This document shows positions 10,878-30,255 of a stretch of DNA of 32,856 nt, one piece after another; the first letter of the stretch is position 1; the number at the start of each line of letters is the position of its first letter. A program made the position numbers and the translations under genes. The notes under the pieces were generated by a model. The model saw only the letters and a program-made list of their open reading frames with translations, did no database searches and was not told where the DNA came from. Source of the DNA: Savitreella phatthalungensis. Lineage: Eukaryota. The DNA lies in NCBI GenBank assembly GCA_051599415.1, contig AP039700.1:434001-466856 (forward strand), given 5' to 3'.

Positions 10878-13373
10878 CTAGAGAAAGCCATCTGTCCCAG
10901 GGATCCAGCCTTTACCGGCATCGAGCGTGCTTTCTCGCAAACCCTGCTGGATACCTCGGTGCAAGGTCTCAAGGAAGCGAGATAACTCGACTGCATCGGC
11001 GTTGCGGTCTTCGATGAGAGCCCCGGCGAACAGAATTTCCGTTCCGTCCAGGCCCTGCCGCGCTAGATATGGCTGGGCAAGTGCACGCGACGGCAGGAAG
11101 CTCGACAGCCAGGCTAGCATATTTCGCAGCTGGATGCTCAATATGCTGCTCGACCCATCGAGCGCAGGCAGATTGCGGACGCGTGATTCTTCAAGCTCCA
11201 CCAGTTGTCCAGACAGGTCGTCGCCAAGTAGGTCTTTGATCGTCTTTGGAGAAACGTCGTTTCGCAACCAGAGGACGGACCACTGACCGTTCACGACAAG
11301 GACTGCGGCGCCCGGCGGAATGGCTCCAAAACTGTTGGCCAAAGCTGGTGGAACGTGAATTTGATCTCCAGCATCGTCTGGAAAGGCCATATGAGGTTTC
11401 AAGCTCGTGAGATCGTAGATACGAGGGCGCAGCAGAAACAGCAGCTCCTTAGTTGGGCTTGTTTGCAACTGGCGCAGATTAGCGACGCGCATGTCGGAAT
11501 TGATTACGTCGGTGCGCAAGGCGTGTTGCTTCTGTAGACCGAGGGCATACAGCGGTAGCTGACGTAAGCTTTCAGGCATCACGAGCAAGCTTTTGTCTGA
11601 GCTGGTGCCACCGTGGCGACGGAAGGCCGTGAGAATCTTGATGCAACGCGCAGTGATGGCAGACTTGATTTCCTTGAGCGTCTTGCGATGTACGTCTGCG
11701 GCAGAGACCCTGGTCAAGTATGTGACAAGTCCGCCCATGTCCGCAGCACGAAGCGCCTCTCCGGGATTGTCAGTGATGGGCAACCTCTTGTGAATCACAC
11801 GGAGGCGGCGACTCCCATCATTAGTCGTGTACAGCACTGCTGCCTGGAGATCTACGCTCGAGCCAGCTGCAACCTTGCCCTCTAGCTCGAGATGGAAGAG
11901 TATGCTCTTGTCCGCATGCAACACACCCATTTCCAGGCTAGATGATGTGCGCGGAATACAACCACCGTAAATTGTCTGCACGGAGACCTTCTCTGAGGTT
12001 CGCAGCTTGATCAGCACATTGTTGCCTTGCTCCCGGCTGCATGCTCGCGTTAAATCGAAGGCGAGACGGCCGGTATCTCTATCCGCGACAAAGTTTGGAT
12101 AGTACAGCGTATCGCCACCAGTCATCGACGGTATGGTTGAGATAGTGGCGACGTCGACATATGCCGCGGGCATGACGAAGATGTCGACACCAACTCCCTT
12201 GCTGACGTATTCCTCCGCCATGTTTTTCCACAAGACGTGTGCGCTGTCGAGCATGGTCTTTTCCTCTGACGTGCCGTACAAGCTCGCGTTCTCCCGCATT
12301 CGCAGCTTTTCGGGGCCCCAAGTTGCCAATGACGACAGGCCAATACAAAGCTTACCACCTGTGCTTTCCAAGCAATGGAGACCTGCTCTCATCATCGCGT
12401 GAAACGCAGGCTCCGGGACAGGGTCTGACACAAAAGCCGACTCGATGCATTGGAGTGTGGCCTCGATGACGTTGGAGTGAACTCCTGGCTCAACAAACAA
12501 ACCATCGTAGAAGGGGAGAAACATGTCCTCCAGATCGCCGACATCGCACATCACAGCGGTCGTGCGGTTCGGGTCGGAGAGATTATAAAACTGGCAGTGT
12601 CGATCGAAGCTGAGAAGGCCGATCTTGCCGGCGAGCCCATTCTCAGCGAGCAGTTTCCGAATTGCAGCGACCATTGAGCGTGTCACGCCCCGTTCAACCG
12701 CTTGTTGGGAGACATCGATCGCGAACAGAGTGTGAAGGGGATGCGGCGCTTTCTTTGCGGTCCAGAAGTCCGGACCCACCAAGTATTCTACAGCGCCATA
12801 GCGGAGCTCTGGGCGGCTTTCAAGATCCTGCCGTAGCCCGGCATAATCTGTCGGCGTGAAGAAATCAGGTGGAGTAACGTTCGAGAAACTGCAGAGGTGA
12901 CAAACAAACCTCGCTCCGCCGTCGATAAACCGCGTGCGCGGGCTGACAAACCCTAGACATCTCGTGCAGCGTACTGGCGATGATTGTGTGACATCTACCA
13001 GGGGAATAGGTTCATCGTCATGACGCAGAGTTGCGAATGGTTGTAACTCCACTGAGAACGGTAATCCGCAGGCTTGCAGGCCGTCGTTGGAGCTTAAGAG
13101 CAGATTCAGCGAGCTGCGGAGCAGCTTCGGATTCGCACAGCCCCCATCGACTGCAGCGAAATCGACGTCTGCAGGTGGTTGTATCGCTGCTGAATCGCCT
13201 GAGACGAAGGGATTCAGACGATAATACGCTTCAAGTCCAATCTCTTCGGCAGGATCTGCCGGCGTCTCATCAACTTCCAGGGCCGCCACCTGCCCGACGA
13301 CAGAATGAACAGATGCGTCAATCAGGTATTGAGCTCTCCGTCTCCCGCGTACGGGTCGATTGTCTGTTGTCAT
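10878..13373 (-). CDS. COPII coat Sec24-family protein (Sfb3/Lst1/SEC24C-D-like)
   Basis: Zinc finger RCTRC...FVCHLC, RPELRYGAVEY, vWA trunk (LFAIDVS, GGK, TGG...YY), beta-sandwich (QAAVLYT..G.RRLRV), helical domain (LVMPESLRQLPLY) and gelsolin-like end. First ATG at 13373 (the ORF track starts at a GTG at 13454). Confidence 0.9.
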   Translation of the reverse strand: MTTDNRPVRGRRRAQYLIDASVHSVVGQVAALEVDETPADPAEEIGLEAYYRLNPFVSGDSAAIQPPADVDFAAVDGGCANPKLLRSSLNLLLSSNDGLQACGLPFSVELQPFATLRHDDEPIPLVDVTQSSPVRCTRCLGFVSPRTRFIDGGARFVCHLCSFSNVTPPDFFTPTDYAGLRQDLESRPELRYGAVEYLVGPDFWTAKKAPHPLHTLFAIDVSQQAVERGVTRSMVAAIRKLLAENGLAGKIGLLSFDRHCQFYNLSDPNRTTAVMCDVGDLEDMFLPFYDGLFVEPGVHSNVIEATLQCIESAFVSDPVPEPAFHAMMRAGLHCLESTGGKLCIGLSSLATWGPEKLRMRENASLYGTSEEKTMLDSAHVLWKNMAEEYVSKGVGVDIFVMPAAYVDVATISTIPSMTGGDTLYYPNFVADRDTGRLAFDLTRACSREQGNNVLIKLRTSEKVSVQTIYGGCIPRTSSSLEMGVLHADKSILFHLELEGKVAAGSSVDLQAAVLYTTNDGSRRLRVIHKRLPITDNPGEALRAADMGGLVTYLTRVSAADVHRKTLKEIKSAITARCIKILTAFRRHGGTSSDKSLLVMPESLRQLPLYALGLQKQHALRTDVINSDMRVANLRQLQTSPTKELLFLLRPRIYDLTSLKPHMAFPDDAGDQIHVPPALANSFGAIPPGAAVLVVNGQWSVLWLRNDVSPKTIKDLLGDDLSGQLVELEESRVRNLPALDGSSSILSIQLRNMLAWLSSFLPSRALAQPYLARQGLDGTEILFAGALIEDRNADAVELSRFLETLHRGIQQGLRESTLDAGKGWIPGTDGFL

Positions 13374-13498
13374 AAGTCCATGTTGCAGGTGGTGTCGCTT
13401 TTGCGTGCGCACAAAAAGGACACGTCGCGAAACGGGAGCCACAATAATGTGCACACTGCGTCACTCATCCGTTTAATTAACCTACAGGATCACTCCAG

Positions 13499-23217: not shown

Positions 23218-24819
23218 TTATACAAACTCTTGCATGGCTCGACGGCATTGCTTGAGCCTGGTCTTGACCTCTCTGGGGAGCTTAACACCTGCCTTGAGCG
23301 CAAACGTTTTCGAAGGTTGCAAACCTTCCGTAAGAATAGCTTCGCATTCCACCGTCCGTAATTCGAGAGACACGCCGTCAAGGAACAGAAAATGCCAAAT
23401 TCCACCCTCTGTCTCGCACCAGCCAATCTCCCGGACAAAGCGACGCACAGAAGAGGGATGAACAGTTGATGTGTAGTCTTGCTTACAGCCGCTCGCCTCG
23501 CAACATCGGCCATGCCAAATCATAGCCTGTCTGACAGGATCTAGGTGCCCCCTGGGCACGTCATCTAGGCAGCCACGCCACAGCACCTTTTCCCGGTTCG
23601 CTAATTTGACCTTCCGTGACGCGGATCCGAATGAGACCTTGAAGCCGTCGCTGATCAGAACGCACTCAAATCGACCGTCATTGAACAACCTACATTTGCA
23701 AGATGCAGACTCGAGCGCTATCAATACTGCGCGTTTTTGTAGCTGGGAAATCGCCTTGGCAGCTGCGCGATACGTCGGCAAATATCGGGCAGGCAAATCA
23801 TCAAGAGTGTAGCTTGTGCTGCCTGTGCTAATTTGTGAACCGTCTGCTGAGATATCGAGAGAGTGATTCTCGCGCTCGACTGTGAGGTTGCCATCTGCGG
23901 AGACGGTAATTTTCCCGCCTTTGATACGCTGTTTGGTCGGCTTCACACCCTCAGTCGAAAACCGATATTTCTCGATAAAGCTGTCAGATACTCGGTTCAC
24001 CTCTGTAATGCGTGAAGCTTCGTCGACGAAAGCGTGCTTCAATACCTCAGCGGCGGTCGGCCGAGCAGAAGCATCCAGCGAAAGCAATGCGTGGACAAGC
24101 ATCTTCGCTTTCTTCGTGGATGCTCTAGGTAATGGTCGGTACGCCGCTTTTGAAACGAGATGCAGTGTCTCAGCAACCTGCTCCCCTTGAAAGGGCGGCT
24201 TGCCAGTTAAGAGGGCCACCATGACGCATCCCAGAGACCAGCAATCCGCAGCTTGCGTGTACGGCGCCTGTGCGAGAATCTCGGGCGCAATGTAGTTCGG
24301 CGTGCCACATGCCAGTGGACTTGTAGCGGCGTCTTTTGCACGGATTGCCAGGCCGAAATCGGCAATCTTCACTTGTCGGTCATCGTCGAGCAGCAGATTG
24401 CTCAGCTTCAGATCCCGATGTAGAACCCCATGAGCGTGGAGAAAGCAGAGTGCGTCAGCCAGATCAGCTATGATTGGTCTTGCGTCCATCTCGATCATGC
24501 CTGTTGGACAATTATGGAGAAGATACGAGAAGAGCGTCGAGCCTGAACAGAGCTCGGTGACGATGAAATCCAGACCATCATCTTGGAATGATCTAATGAA
24601 GCGCAAAATACGTCGATGACAGCCTATCGAGCGGTGGATATCAACTTCTCGACTGATCAATGCCATGCGCGATTTGTCGGCAACGACCTCGCGACGAAGC
24701 ACCTTGACTGCCACCTTTTCCTGTGTCGCCAAGTCGCGACATCTGTAAACCTGGCCCGTCGCTCCTGAGCCGATGCTGGTCTCAAACGCATAGCCACCAA
24801 CCCGCGCGCCGGCTTGCAT
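23218..24819 (-). CDS. Polo-like Ser/Thr kinase with PLK4/SAK-type C-terminus (cryptic polo box PB1-PB2 plus PB3)
   Basis: Kinase motifs GSGATGQVY, VAVK, HRDLKLSNLLL, KIADFGLA, CGTPNYIAPE, D.WSLG. C-terminus has KP.KQ..K, ISADG..I, YTLDDLP..Y..Y..A, KC.L, H..C and FV..IGW....F.DG..L...KLP..VK.RL, matching my recollection of PLK4 polo boxes. Start chosen at ATG 24819 (alternative 24885). Confidence 0.8.
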   Translation of the reverse strand: MQAGARVGGYAFETSIGSGATGQVYRCRDLATQEKVAVKVLRREVVADKSRMALISREVDIHRSIGCHRRILRFIRSFQDDGLDFIVTELCSGSTLFSYLLHNCPTGMIEMDARPIIADLADALCFLHAHGVLHRDLKLSNLLLDDDRQVKIADFGLAIRAKDAATSPLACGTPNYIAPEILAQAPYTQAADCWSLGCVMVALLTGKPPFQGEQVAETLHLVSKAAYRPLPRASTKKAKMLVHALLSLDASARPTAAEVLKHAFVDEASRITEVNRVSDSFIEKYRFSTEGVKPTKQRIKGGKITVSADGNLTVERENHSLDISADGSQISTGSTSYTLDDLPARYLPTYRAAAKAISQLQKRAVLIALESASCKCRLFNDGRFECVLISDGFKVSFGSASRKVKLANREKVLWRGCLDDVPRGHLDPVRQAMIWHGRCCEASGCKQDYTSTVHPSSVRRFVREIGWCETEGGIWHFLFLDGVSLELRTVECEAILTEGLQPSKTFALKAGVKLPREVKTRLKQCRRAMQEFV

Positions 24820-24927
24820 CGGGCAAATGGTCGCACAAATCTTGAGCGCAGTCGTGCGAGAATGCGCGTACGTCAAAATAAACATTGGGATAATCACTCG
24901 TCAAATTTACCTTTTCGACAATATGCA

Positions 24928-27480: not shown

Positions 27481-30255
27481 CTATGCAGTGGTCGGAATTC
27501 CAGACCTTCTGAAAAGCTGACGAACGCCCTTCCGTGAAGTTTCCTCTGATTCGTCGCTGCTCTCGCGGAAGATCTTACTAGCTGAGCGGCGGATATTCGA
27601 TGCAATCGAGTTCCGTCGATGATCACTTGGCGCGAGCGAAGCCGAATCCTCCACAATCGAGTTTGCTTTCGAAGGAATCTCTTTCAGAGCTACGCGCTGA
27701 TCGTCAAGAACGCTAGCACGTCGATTAGTCCGTTCGATTGAGTCAAAGATCGCGTCAATATCATCTGGATCGCTCATCGGAGGAGTCGCTGGCTGCTTGG
27801 CAGGGGTCTCAGCAATCGAATCGAGCTTCTTCTGCAGCATGTCTGACTTCGCTGGACTCGGCGGTGTGGTCTGCTTGACAAGTTGTGGGGTTGTGCGTGC
27901 CTGCTCGAGCTCTTGGCTGAGACTCCGCATCTTCTGCTCGGCTGCAGAGTGATGCTCTTCGAGCTGTCTTCGGAGCGATAAGATCAGAGCCTCATGGTGC
28001 ACTGCCGAAGTTGTCAAACGCTCGTGAACAGCTTTCGCGTCCTCAACTGCGCGCCTATGCTGCTCCTTAGAGTCTTGTAGCTCAGCCTGTAATTGCTGTT
28101 GAGCAATCCGTGACTCCTCCGATACGCTCCTCTGGCGACTCTCAAGGTCCGTTTCGCGCTTGCGGGATCCAGCGAGTGCCTTTGTCAGGTCCGCCAGCTT
28201 GGCCTCGGACGAAACATCCCTGGCTCTTGCTGTATCCAGTTCAGTGACTAGTGCGCTGAGTTGCGATTCGAGGTCTTTGCGTGCCTGGTCATGTACGGCA
28301 GCCGCTTGCTGTGCAGTCGATAGATCCTTCTGAGCGGACACGAGTGTCTGCTCTCGGCTCTCGACGTCAGCTCGAAGAGCCGCGAGCTGCTTTGCATGCT
28401 CGAGCTTCATCTCCTCCCGAGAACTCAGCTCAGCAGTGAGCCGCCTCTCCGCTTCTTCGCCGACAGACTTATGGTTCGCCAACTCGCCTTGCAAAGTCTC
28501 GAGTTGGCGCGACTGCTCTGCTTTCACCGTCTCCAGCTGTGCAGTTCGCTGACCGGCTTCCTTGGCGCTCGATCTCAATTGCTCCATCTGTGCCATTAAT
28601 GACTCCAGCTCGGCCTTGTGCATGTCATTCGAGCGTGTGCTCTCAGCCTCGACCTTTTGCGCAGCAGCGTTTCGTTCTGCGGCATGCTGCGAAAGAGCAT
28701 CCTCCAAGGATCGAGCCTGAGCAGCGAATGATGCAGTGTGCTTTGCGTCATTGGCAGCTAGCGCTTCTTCGTGGTCTGACTTAAGCTGACGAATGACCGA
28801 CTGGTGTTCGGATGCGAGAGCAGCCAGCTCTTGCTCACCAGCTTCTTTGGATGTTTTCCTGCTCAACTCGTATTCTGCGCGCATCTCCGCAAGCTCCTTT
28901 TCCTGCTGCTTGCGTAAATTTGACAACTGTGATTCATGCTCAGAGCGTAACCTCGAAATCTCATGGTCAGACTGCTCAACTTTTTGCGTGATTTCTTCTT
29001 GCAGCGCTTCAACTTCTTTTGCGGCGGTGGCCTTTTGCCGTTCGGCTGCGTCGCGCTCCTCTGTCAACCGCGCCACGACTTCGGTTTCCCGCTCGATGCG
29101 CATCACGAGCTCACTCTTGTTTTCTTCATGGGTCTTCTGCATGAGCTCTAGTTCGTCCTTTGCGCGCCGCAGCACACCTTGCTGTTCAGCTGTGCGCTTC
29201 TCAAGTTCTGTAGCATGGTCTCGCTTGCAGGATTCACGCTCCTGTTCCGTCGCTTTCGTCAGCGCACTGCGATGTGCTTCTTGAAGTTGCTCGAGGTTTG
29301 CCTTGTGCTCTGAGACCAGGCCGGCAATCTTGTGCTGGAGCACGGATACCTCATTCGTCTGTCGTTCGGCTTGTGCATCGTTTTCACTCTTCAGCTTCGA
29401 TAATTGGGTGGCAAGCGAGCCCTCTCGAGCTTTGCGTTCTTCGAGTTGGCTTTCCAGCGCCTGGCACTGTTGTGTTAGGCTCTCGGTCTTTGTCGATCCT
29501 TCCGCCGCCTGGGCCTGTAGCGTTGCTACGACCGACGCGTGTCTTGCGGCAGCACCATCGTGCTGTGCCAACTTCTCCCGAAACGACGCAATGGCTGTTT
29601 CGGCCTCAGTGAGGCGATCCTTTGCCCTGACAAGATCCTCTTCGAGCTCCTGTGAGCGTTGTTGCGACGCGCTCGCTGTGCTTTCGGCCGTTTTCAGCTG
29701 AGTCTGAAGAGCTACTACTTGCTGTTCCGAGAGGAGCTTCTCTTTCTCAATAGCTGTGCGCTGACTTCTGAGATTCCCGAGCTCCGCAGCATGATTTTGT
29801 GCAAGTTCGCGAAGTCCCCGCAGCTGCTCAATCTCCACGTCACGCTCGAGAATTTCCTTTTCAAATGCGAGCATCTCTGCTCGGAGCTGTTCAGCCATGA
29901 CTTTAGTCCTCTTGGCTGCTTCGCGCTCGGCGTCCAGCTGTTGAGCGAGCGACGTGGACTTTGCGTCTGAAGCGCGCTGTGCTAGGTGATGCGCTTCTGC
30001 AGCCTCCCTCGCACGCTCGGCAGTGAGTTTCTGTGCATCCTCGAGCGCAGCCGTTTTTTCTGCCAGCAGTGCCTCAACTTCTGAGAATCGCGCCTGCAGC
30101 TCTTCAATCGTCTCCGTGTGCTCAAGTTTTCGCTCTCCTGAGCGGATCACGTCATGATAACCATACTCTTGCCCTGCAGCATGGCTCGTGATTGCTAGAC
30201 CGCCAATTGCAGCTACTGCCAAAAGCAAAGCTTTGCCGCCATTCATGTAGTCCAT
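27481..30255 (-). CDS. Long coiled-coil protein with N-terminal hydrophobic segment; function unknown
   Basis: 924-aa uninterrupted ORF from ATG 30255. ALLLAVAAIGGLAIT hydrophobic stretch, then roughly 750 aa of E/A/L/Q/K/R-rich, proline-free heptad-like sequence and a Ser/Pro/basic tail. Confidence 0.8.
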   Translation of the reverse strand: MDYMNGGKALLLAVAAIGGLAITSHAAGQEYGYHDVIRSGERKLEHTETIEELQARFSEVEALLAEKTAALEDAQKLTAERAREAAEAHHLAQRASDAKSTSLAQQLDAEREAAKRTKVMAEQLRAEMLAFEKEILERDVEIEQLRGLRELAQNHAAELGNLRSQRTAIEKEKLLSEQQVVALQTQLKTAESTASASQQRSQELEEDLVRAKDRLTEAETAIASFREKLAQHDGAAARHASVVATLQAQAAEGSTKTESLTQQCQALESQLEERKAREGSLATQLSKLKSENDAQAERQTNEVSVLQHKIAGLVSEHKANLEQLQEAHRSALTKATEQERESCKRDHATELEKRTAEQQGVLRRAKDELELMQKTHEENKSELVMRIERETEVVARLTEERDAAERQKATAAKEVEALQEEITQKVEQSDHEISRLRSEHESQLSNLRKQQEKELAEMRAEYELSRKTSKEAGEQELAALASEHQSVIRQLKSDHEEALAANDAKHTASFAAQARSLEDALSQHAAERNAAAQKVEAESTRSNDMHKAELESLMAQMEQLRSSAKEAGQRTAQLETVKAEQSRQLETLQGELANHKSVGEEAERRLTAELSSREEMKLEHAKQLAALRADVESREQTLVSAQKDLSTAQQAAAVHDQARKDLESQLSALVTELDTARARDVSSEAKLADLTKALAGSRKRETDLESRQRSVSEESRIAQQQLQAELQDSKEQHRRAVEDAKAVHERLTTSAVHHEALILSLRRQLEEHHSAAEQKMRSLSQELEQARTTPQLVKQTTPPSPAKSDMLQKKLDSIAETPAKQPATPPMSDPDDIDAIFDSIERTNRRASVLDDQRVALKEIPSKANSIVEDSASLAPSDHRRNSIASNIRRSASKIFRESSDESEETSRKGVRQLFRRSGIPTTA

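Follow-up and report, generated by a model that had tools for sequence, protein, structure and literature searches.

PLK4, also called SAK, is the polo-like kinase that sets off the duplication of centrioles in animals. It is a centriolar protein whose kinase domain is followed by two polo boxes, PB1 and PB2, which form the cryptic polo box (CPB), and by a single third box, PB3; the CPB binds CEP152/CEP192 and PB3 binds STIL/Ana2. The animal enzyme carries a DSGxx[ST] motif just after the kinase domain, which is its SCF-Slimb/beta-TrCP degron, and a threonine located two residues before the CGTPNY motif of the activation loop (T-loop), which is its autophosphorylation site. Dikarya are known to possess neither flagella nor centrioles and use spindle pole bodies (SPBs) instead. 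The primary survey behind the statements that restrict PLK4 to chytrids is reportedly that of Carvalho-Santos et al. (2010, J Cell Sci). In the centrosome-evolution literature, PLK4 and centriole proteins are given as limited to chytrids among fungi (PMC6070874, PMC6559791), centriole-biogenesis proteins as unidentified in fungal genomes other than those of chytrids (PMC6559791), and an acentriolar microtubule-organising centre (MTOC) is predicted from the absence of Sas6 and Plk4 (PMC11153136). Here, we describe a gene on the minus strand of a 32,856-nucleotide stretch of DNA (contig AP039700.1, positions 434,001 to 466,856; hereafter "the window") which is, probably, a vertically inherited PLK4/SAK orthologue kept by an ascomycete lineage with spindle pole bodies and without centrioles or flagella.

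The gene and its tail of three polo boxes

The gene lies in an open frame at 23218-24900 (minus strand) that runs for 560 amino acids from stop to stop. Translation from the ATG at 24819 yields a protein of 533 amino acids in a single uninterrupted frame (23221-24819). From the whole gene to its parts, the following features can be delineated:

23218..24819, minus strand: complete, single-exon coding sequence of the PLK4-type kinase, 533 amino acids plus the stop codon (23218-23220); unbroken frame, AlphaFold model with a mean predicted local distance difference test (pLDDT) of 92.2
24820..24885, minus strand: candidate N-terminal extension of 22 amino acids (MFILTYAHS...), starting at an in-frame upstream ATG used by the database gene model
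24025..24792, minus strand: polo-family Ser/Thr kinase domain, residues 10-265 (Pfam Pkinase, E 1.4e-63)
23950..24024, minus strand: kinase-to-PB1 linker of ~25 residues, without DSG (alignment A1; pLDDT dips at residues 274-278)
23731..23949, minus strand: polo box 1 (CPB), residues ~291-363, six strands and a helix (344-363) carrying LPARYLPTYRAAAKAI (profile and model)
23491..23730, minus strand: polo box 2 (CPB), residues ~364-443, six strands and a helix (423-443) (predicted secondary structure; the CPB matches span both boxes)
23449..23490, minus strand: short, flexible PB2-PB3 linker, residues 444-457 (pLDDT <50 at 448-456)
23221..23448, minus strand: polo box 3, residues 458-533, six strands and a C-terminal helix (516-532), with FVREIGWC and FLFLDG (VIA-align and profile)

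The position of the start codon admits two solutions. The public model of the same protein in the sequence collection (P0002, 555 amino acids) takes the upstream ATG. The relatives start 13-26 residues ahead of the kinase domain, which begins at residue 10 of the 533-residue form; judging from the sequence, either ATG (24819 or the upstream in-frame one) may be the start. The strings quoted in the preliminary description of this locus are all found in the 533-residue translation: GQVY (within the G-loop IGSGATGQVY), HRDLKLSNLLL, YTLDDLPARYLPTYRAAAKAISQLQKR, FVREIGW, FLDG and KLPREVKTRL. The Plk1/Cdc5/Plo1 signature that it had declared absent is indeed missing, as direct reading of the tail reveals no W.DYS.

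The tail (residues 270-533) defines a family of its own. A word-index search matched only the protein itself. Run exhaustively over 1.84 billion representative proteins, phmmer returned 37 at E<=0.001, the window protein included; 24 of them reach E<=1e-10, and 11 reach E<=1e-30. Among the 36 non-self matches, 13 score at or above the gathering score of the Pfam model Plk4_PB1, 12 more match it at E<=0.01, and 11 do not match it. By these sequence matches, the tail family is not a chance match. In the protein atlas, the tail is without a usable match and the whole protein leads to generic polo-kinase clusters only, driven by the kinase domain. Two of the 11 proteins without a Plk4_PB1 match were discarded as unrelated repeat proteins, namely P0026, which is bacterial and has MBG repeats, and P0030, which has Olduvai repeats.

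A profile was then assembled from the tail of the window protein and 14 relatives whose models show no recognisable kinase domain, and it contains no animal protein. Run against 177,635 distinct PDB sequences, it retrieves 12 sequences at E<=1, of which 11 are PLK4 CPB or PB3 and one is unrelated (E 0.16). The human PLK4 CPB accounts for five of these sequences (1.3e-20 to 1.1e-18), the Drosophila CPB for two (1.2e-7), and PLK4 PB3 for four (4yyp, 2n19, 5lhy and mouse Sak 1mby; 6.7e-7 to 2.6e-6). The CPB match spans both boxes, profile positions 289-470 facing chain residues 13-215. The polo-box domains (PBDs) of PLK1, PLK2 and Cdc5 do not appear at E<=1 among the same PDB sequences. The human PLK4 string given in the preliminary description can be read in the HMMER alignment with chain 6w38_B, where it stands opposite the LPxxxxxYRYASRFV block of the family.

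Unlike the AlphaFold2 model, which was built from a 51-row alignment that included true PLK4s, this profile search is independent of them. The mean pLDDT of the model is 92.2 over the full length, where it exceeds 90 for 452 of the 533 residues, and 93.3 when the tail is folded by itself. The tail is predicted to fold as three β6-α modules, PB1 (295-363), PB2 (365-443) and PB3 (458-532). The boundaries proposed beforehand agree with these modules: the span 23961-23494, called the CPB, corresponds to residues 287-442 and covers the predicted PB1 (strands 295-338, helix 344-363) and PB2 (strands 365-417, helix 423-443), while the span 23445-23221, called PB3, corresponds to residues 459-533 and to the third module (458-532).

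The structural comparison with PLK4 CPB and PB3 that had been proposed came out as anticipated. Foldseek against the PDB places PLK4 CPB structures at all of ranks 1-10 (E 6.6e-8 to 9.1e-6, template-modelling (TM) score by target 0.55-0.64), and the PLK1 and Cdc5 PBDs rank below them with TM scores of at most 0.35. With VIA-align, the CPB of the model superposes on its human (6n45_A; Z 12.8, root-mean-square deviation (rmsd) of 3.8 Å over 168 residues) and fly (4g7n_A; Z 12.1, rmsd 3.7 Å over 165 residues) counterparts. The fit of PB3 is tighter, with an rmsd of 1.7 Å over 77/78 residues to human PB3 (5lhz_A; Z 12.6, with similar results for 4yyp and 5lhx) and of 1.6 Å to fly PB3 (7rl3_A; Z 11.5). 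The PLK1 PBD rows reach a Z of ~12 but with an rmsd of ~15 Å: in the model, the single boxes fit those of PLK1 and their mutual arrangement does not. When the CPB (tail residues 1-176) was modelled as a two-copy complex, without alignment, the score was 0.01 against a mark of 0.32, which counts neither for nor against dimerisation.

Kinase domain, phylogeny and fungal relatives

The kinase domain had been delimited at 24792-24025, i.e. residues 10-265, which is identical to the envelope of the Pfam Pkinase match. Its catalytic motifs are complete (G17-x-G19-x-x-G22, K39, E58, HRD 134-136, N141, DFG 154-156 and APE 178-180), and the kinase is predicted, by motif content, to be catalytically competent. 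Nine columns are conserved at 90% or more across 51 family members, and all nine are kept in the 533-residue protein. Compared with PDB sequences, the domain matches PLK1 (2.8e-46), PLK3 (1.2e-45) and PLK4 (2e-45) equally well, with CaMK1 behind (5.6e-40).

The two regulatory elements of the animal enzyme are both altered. A threonine or serine is found two residues before CGTPN[YF] in 30 of the 33 rows of alignment A1 that have this motif, the exceptions being the window protein, with Leu169 at this position, and its two nearest relatives, with a valine. The nearest hydroxyls are those of T166, three residues ahead of Leu169, and of S167, two residues ahead of it. The 25-residue linker is the shortest among the A1 rows having both kinase and tail, the other rows ranging from 30 to 424 residues. 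No D[ST]G occurs anywhere in the 533-residue protein, which hence carries no DSGxx[ST] degron. A DSG is present at 287-306 in all five animal rows. Of the other rows examined, those from chytrids (3), zygomycetes (2) and named Taphrinomycotina (6) lack it at the animal position, and the two nearest relatives carry DSGREV at 285. Because the long DSG-containing linker is missing and the T-loop threonine is replaced by Leu169, the regulation, as read from the sequence, must differ from that of animal PLK4: SCF-mediated self-destruction and T-loop autophosphorylation, the controls of the animal enzyme, cannot operate in the same way here.

The phylogeny of the kinase was established from 55 proteins collected by the tail and kinase searches, aligned and cut to residues 8-268 of the window protein. 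A quick tree of the 55 rows groups the window protein in an ascomycete clade (99), itself within a wider 36-row clade that adds the chytrid, zygomycete and animal PLK4s (Shimodaira-Hasegawa-like approximate likelihood ratio test, SH-aLRT, 94). A careful IQ-TREE analysis was performed on 52 rows and 259 columns, P0018 (long branch) as well as P0005 and P0011 (short fragments) having been dropped. It recovers a PLK4 clade of 33 rows including the window protein (99/93) and a PLK1/2 clade of 12 rows excluding it (100/99), in line with the outcome that the preliminary description had expected of a tree with PLK1, PLK4 and chytrid rows. The PLK1 side of both trees consists of animals and one alveolate. 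Support inside the PLK4 clade is 98/89 for the animals, 83/82 for the fungi and 100/98 for a subclade of ascomycetes, made up of the window protein, Neolecta irregularis, five species of Pneumocystis and 7 further rows. The branching order, animals, then chytrids and zygomycetes, then ascomycetes, mirrors the species tree, which argues for vertical descent and orthology and not for transfer, and sustains the earlier proposal of a retained gene. The PLK4/SAK identity assigned at the outset is likewise upheld by the tail profile, whose recognisable matches are PLK4 CPB and PB3 only, by the three-box fold and by the position of the kinase in the PLK4 clade.

Named homologues are found in several Taphrinomycotina: Neolecta irregularis (OLL24386.1, whose product name, an automatic annotation, is "Serine/threonine-protein kinase PLK4"), Saitoella complicata (SAICODRAFT_26747), Pneumocystis (six species or isolates, e.g. 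T552_01101 and PORY_001682, labelled hypothetical protein or "Polo kinase") and Schizosaccharomyces japonicus (SJAG_03129). Their tails match that of the window protein in phmmer with E-values of 2.6e-18, 3.1e-17, 1.6e-11 and 1.2e-9, respectively. The nearest relatives, 44-56% identical, are metagenome or run-assembly proteins. The tail of SJAG_03129 (P0027) aligns to the family profile over 238 columns (hhalign probability 99.2%, E 9.9e-20). The kinase region of this protein has neither HRD nor DFG and resembles PLK kinases only weakly (E 4.5e-6). On this sequence evidence, SJAG_03129 is probably a PLK4-derived pseudokinase in a fission yeast. In the Saitoella homologue (P0016 / P0269), the Pfam kinase model matches the N-lobe only, positions 3-139 of 263, and HRD and DFG are missing, which may reflect genuine decay or a mistake in the gene model.

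Early-diverging Pezizomycotina and Saccharomycotina yield weaker matches to the tail, in proteins whose gene models have no kinase domain (P0032, P0033, P0035 and P0273), namely in the Pezizales Tuber borchii, Wilcoxina mikolae and Tricharina praecox and in Kockiozyma suomiensis (Lipomycetaceae). In the latter species, the match is confined to PB1 (hhalign 95.4%, E 1.9e-8). The Pezizales and Kockiozyma tails could be remnants or truncated gene models; since some "kinase-less" models of relatives start with the last kinase subdomain, this pattern is at least partly due to truncated gene models.

Outside the ascomycetes, PLK4 relatives are found in chytrids and also in the non-flagellated Basidiobolus, Calcarisporiella and Endogone. 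The kinases of these zygomycetes (Basidiobolus ranarum P0054, Calcarisporiella thermophila P0063 and Endogone sp. P0084) belong to the PLK4 clade, and retention without flagella therefore looks wider than the ascomycetes. Precomputed Pfam annotations assign Plk4_PB1 and Plk4_PB2 to the Basidiobolus and Calcarisporiella proteins, and the kinase domain only to the partial Endogone protein.

The family is thus already visible in databases, one member bearing an automatic PLK4 name, and the window copy is not unique. The novelty claimed for it in the preliminary description is accordingly reduced with regard to databases, which hold orthologues from Neolecta, Pneumocystis, Saitoella and S. japonicus, and stands with regard to published descriptions, none having been found in the literature searched. 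That literature contained no paper on an ascomycete PLK4 and none that brings PLK4 together with Dikarya, although a mention in the supplements of PMC6559791 or in subscription journals is possible, and none of five locus tags or accessions looked for was found in it.

Host organism, rival explanations and possible function

The flanking open reading frames are typical of fungi. They encode a Gti1/Pac2 (WOPR) regulator, a PFF1-type M28 vacuolar protease and an HPC2/ubinuclein protein, together with Ebp2, Rrp14/SURF6, an Ariadne-type RBR ligase, a ribulose-phosphate 3-epimerase, an amidase and a Sec24-like protein. The last of these was used to place the host:

10878-13460, minus strand: Sec24-like neighbour of the Sfb3/Sec24C kind (sequence matches and 32-row tree)

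Its best named matches are from Saitoella (37% identity) and Pneumocystis (38%), and one run-assembly protein reaches 51%. As the nearest named fungi are only 37-38% identical, the host would belong to a sparsely sampled lineage. In the 32-row tree, the window sequence lies inside the Ascomycota (100), outside Pezizomycotina and Lipomyces (97) and beside Pneumocystis (83). The ascomycete-looking neighbourhood noted beforehand is therefore borne out by the gene content and by this tree, and the host, as far as the sequences tell, is an ascomycete, deep-branching and probably within or close to Taphrinomycotina. Elsewhere in the window, a frame of 944 amino acids at 27481-30315 (minus strand) matches no Pfam family at E<=0.01; the AT skew of the plus strand is strongly negative there, from -0.26 to -0.38 at 28-30 kb.

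Several observations weigh against the assignment of this gene to PLK4 and its retention in an ascomycete. Pfam run on the protein alone detects Plk4_PB1 at residues 303-357 with 17.6 bits, under the cut-off of 26.4, and does not report Plk4_PB2; of the Pfam outcome foreseen in the preliminary description, only the part concerning POLO_box holds, this model giving no match to the 533-residue protein even at E<=10. The assignment is carried by the family profile and the predicted structure, and the latter depends in part on the PLK4s of its alignment. Fungal Plo1/Cdc5 rows are absent from the trees, in which the branch of the window protein is long (0.68 changes per column in the careful tree). 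The canonical T-loop threonine, the long linker and the degron are lost. The Saitoella and S. japonicus relatives are devoid of HRD and DFG, and the family may, to judge from these sequences, be drifting from catalysis in ascomycetes. Finally, the host placement comes from one gene tree and the gene content.

Some of these points feed alternative explanations. A strongly diverged Plo1/Cdc5 (PLK1-type) kinase, with merely PLK4-like polo boxes, could be invoked from the PLK1 kinase being marginally the best PDB sequence match (2.8e-46 vs 2e-45 for PLK4), from the many PLK1 PBD chains at Z ~12 and from the POLO_box clusters that come first in the protein atlas. It is scarcely credible, and already largely refuted, as the window protein stands outside the PLK1/2 clade (100/99), neither the tail profile (at E<=1) nor the Pfam POLO_box model (at E<=10) links it to PLK1 PBDs, and its boxes are three instead of two, the PLK1 PBDs superposing with an rmsd of ~15 Å. 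It is also very improbable that the gene is foreign to an ascomycete, whether through contamination or through horizontal transfer with a chytrid or animal as the source, or that the host is a flagellated fungus. The narrow basis of the host taxonomy and the 37-38% identity of the nearest named Sfb3 homologues leave room for such a scenario, but the gene is embedded in a 32.9-kb run of fungal genes with an even G+C, its kinase joins those of Neolecta and Pneumocystis (100/98) and not those of chytrids or animals, and the Sfb3 tree puts the window inside the Ascomycota (100).

The main rival explanation takes the gene for a PLK4 relic, either disappearing or already converted, that would be kept as a non-catalytic scaffold or as a weakly constrained gene without any MTOC role. 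The long terminal branch would fit such a fate, as would the loss of the kinase-to-PB1 (L1) linker, of the DSG degron and of a T-loop threonine kept in 30/33 kinase-bearing relatives. Related proteins point the same way, with S. japonicus and Saitoella homologues lacking HRD and DFG, an S. japonicus kinase region that matches PLK kinases at no better than E 4.5e-6, and polo-box-like tails in Pezizales and Kockiozyma whose gene models have no kinase domain. In the window protein itself, however, the 533-codon frame is intact, the catalytic motifs are all present, the predicted fold exceeds a pLDDT of 90 for 452/533 residues and the nine near-invariant columns of the family are all kept, so that we regard a relic as unlikely and favour a retained PLK4 orthologue.

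A retained PLK4 would be an active kinase, with polo boxes that would tether it to a scaffold at the spindle pole body or at another acentriolar MTOC. By analogy with the PLK4 family, the CPB would dimerise and dock on an acidic scaffold, and PB3 would bind a coiled-coil partner to be phosphorylated there by the kinase. This phosphorylation might license MTOC duplication or assembly, in mitosis or in meiosis and ascospore formation. Given the PLK4 identity, such a role at an MTOC or SPB is a serious possibility on grounds of analogy, albeit one to which we would give slightly less than an even chance. Animal PLK4 is already known to act in the absence of centrioles: in mouse embryos and oocytes, acentriolar spindle assembly reportedly requires it, and it is reported to promote the formation of MTOCs de novo (PMC3898710, PMC5674873, PMC6398482). 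As an intact gene is kept in a group without centrioles, PLK4 probably works also at microtubule-organising centres other than centrioles.

A more tentative scenario is that PLK4 outlived the centriole in the ascomycete stem and persisted in early-diverging Ascomycota as an SPB or meiotic-MTOC kinase. It might then, with the same reserve, have remained intact in the window lineage, Neolecta and Pneumocystis, become a pseudokinase in S. japonicus, and been reduced to polo-box remnants in Pezizales and Lipomycetaceae. If this were true, the ancestral task of PLK4 would be the licensing of MTOC duplication as such, and SPB duplication would descend in part from the centriole-duplication pathway, without the degron and T-loop controls of animals. 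Reviews and phylogenetic profiles use PLK4 as a centriole marker, a link that an intact ascomycete orthologue breaks. An ascomycete PLK4 would also offer a handle on the replacement of the centriolar centrosome by the spindle pole body, and its compact form, without degron and T-loop threonine, would show which PLK4 controls are animal additions. Since Saitoella complicata and S. japonicus (SJAG_03129), which can be cultured and are in part tractable, have homologues, the question is open to localisation and knock-out work.

Comparison with known polo kinases

Plk1, Polo, Cdc5 and Plo1 share with the window protein the kinase family and the β6-α fold of single boxes. They differ by their two-box phosphopeptide clamp and form a separate clade (100/99), whereas the window protein has three boxes, which do not superpose as a whole (rmsd ~15 Å).

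Animal PLK4/SAK, as known from human and Drosophila, shares with the window protein the clade, the order kinase-PB1-PB2-single PB3 and the LPxxYxxxYxYAxxF motif of the PB1 helix. The animal rows are longer, with 754-858 amino acids vs 533 and a linker of 133-230 residues vs 25; they possess DSG (5/5 rows) and the T-loop threonine, in contrast to the window protein, which has no DSG and carries Leu169. The host of the window protein also differs, as it belongs to a group known to lack centrioles.

Among fungi, the PLK4 of the chytrid Chytriomyces hyalinus (KAJ3235998.1, P0034) is a tail homologue of the PLK4 clade and also lacks DSGxx[ST]. It passes the Pfam cut-offs for PB1 (35 bits) and PB2 (74 bits), unlike the window protein, and retains the T-loop threonine that is Leu169 here. 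The chytrid is a flagellated fungus that bears centrioles (PMC6070874). The Taphrinomycotina homologues resemble the window protein through the tail family, and those of Neolecta and Pneumocystis also through membership of the ascomycete PLK4 subclade (100/98). Their tails are 27-35% identical to that of the window protein, the identity being 34-39% for Neolecta and Pneumocystis over the kinase domain or the whole alignment. Their linkers, of 139-308 residues (247-308 in Pneumocystis), are far longer than the 25 residues observed here, and Neolecta and Pneumocystis retain the T-loop threonine, as opposed to Leu169. Set against these systems, the protein of the window represents a known kinase in a compact fungal form, encountered in a cellular context where it was not expected.

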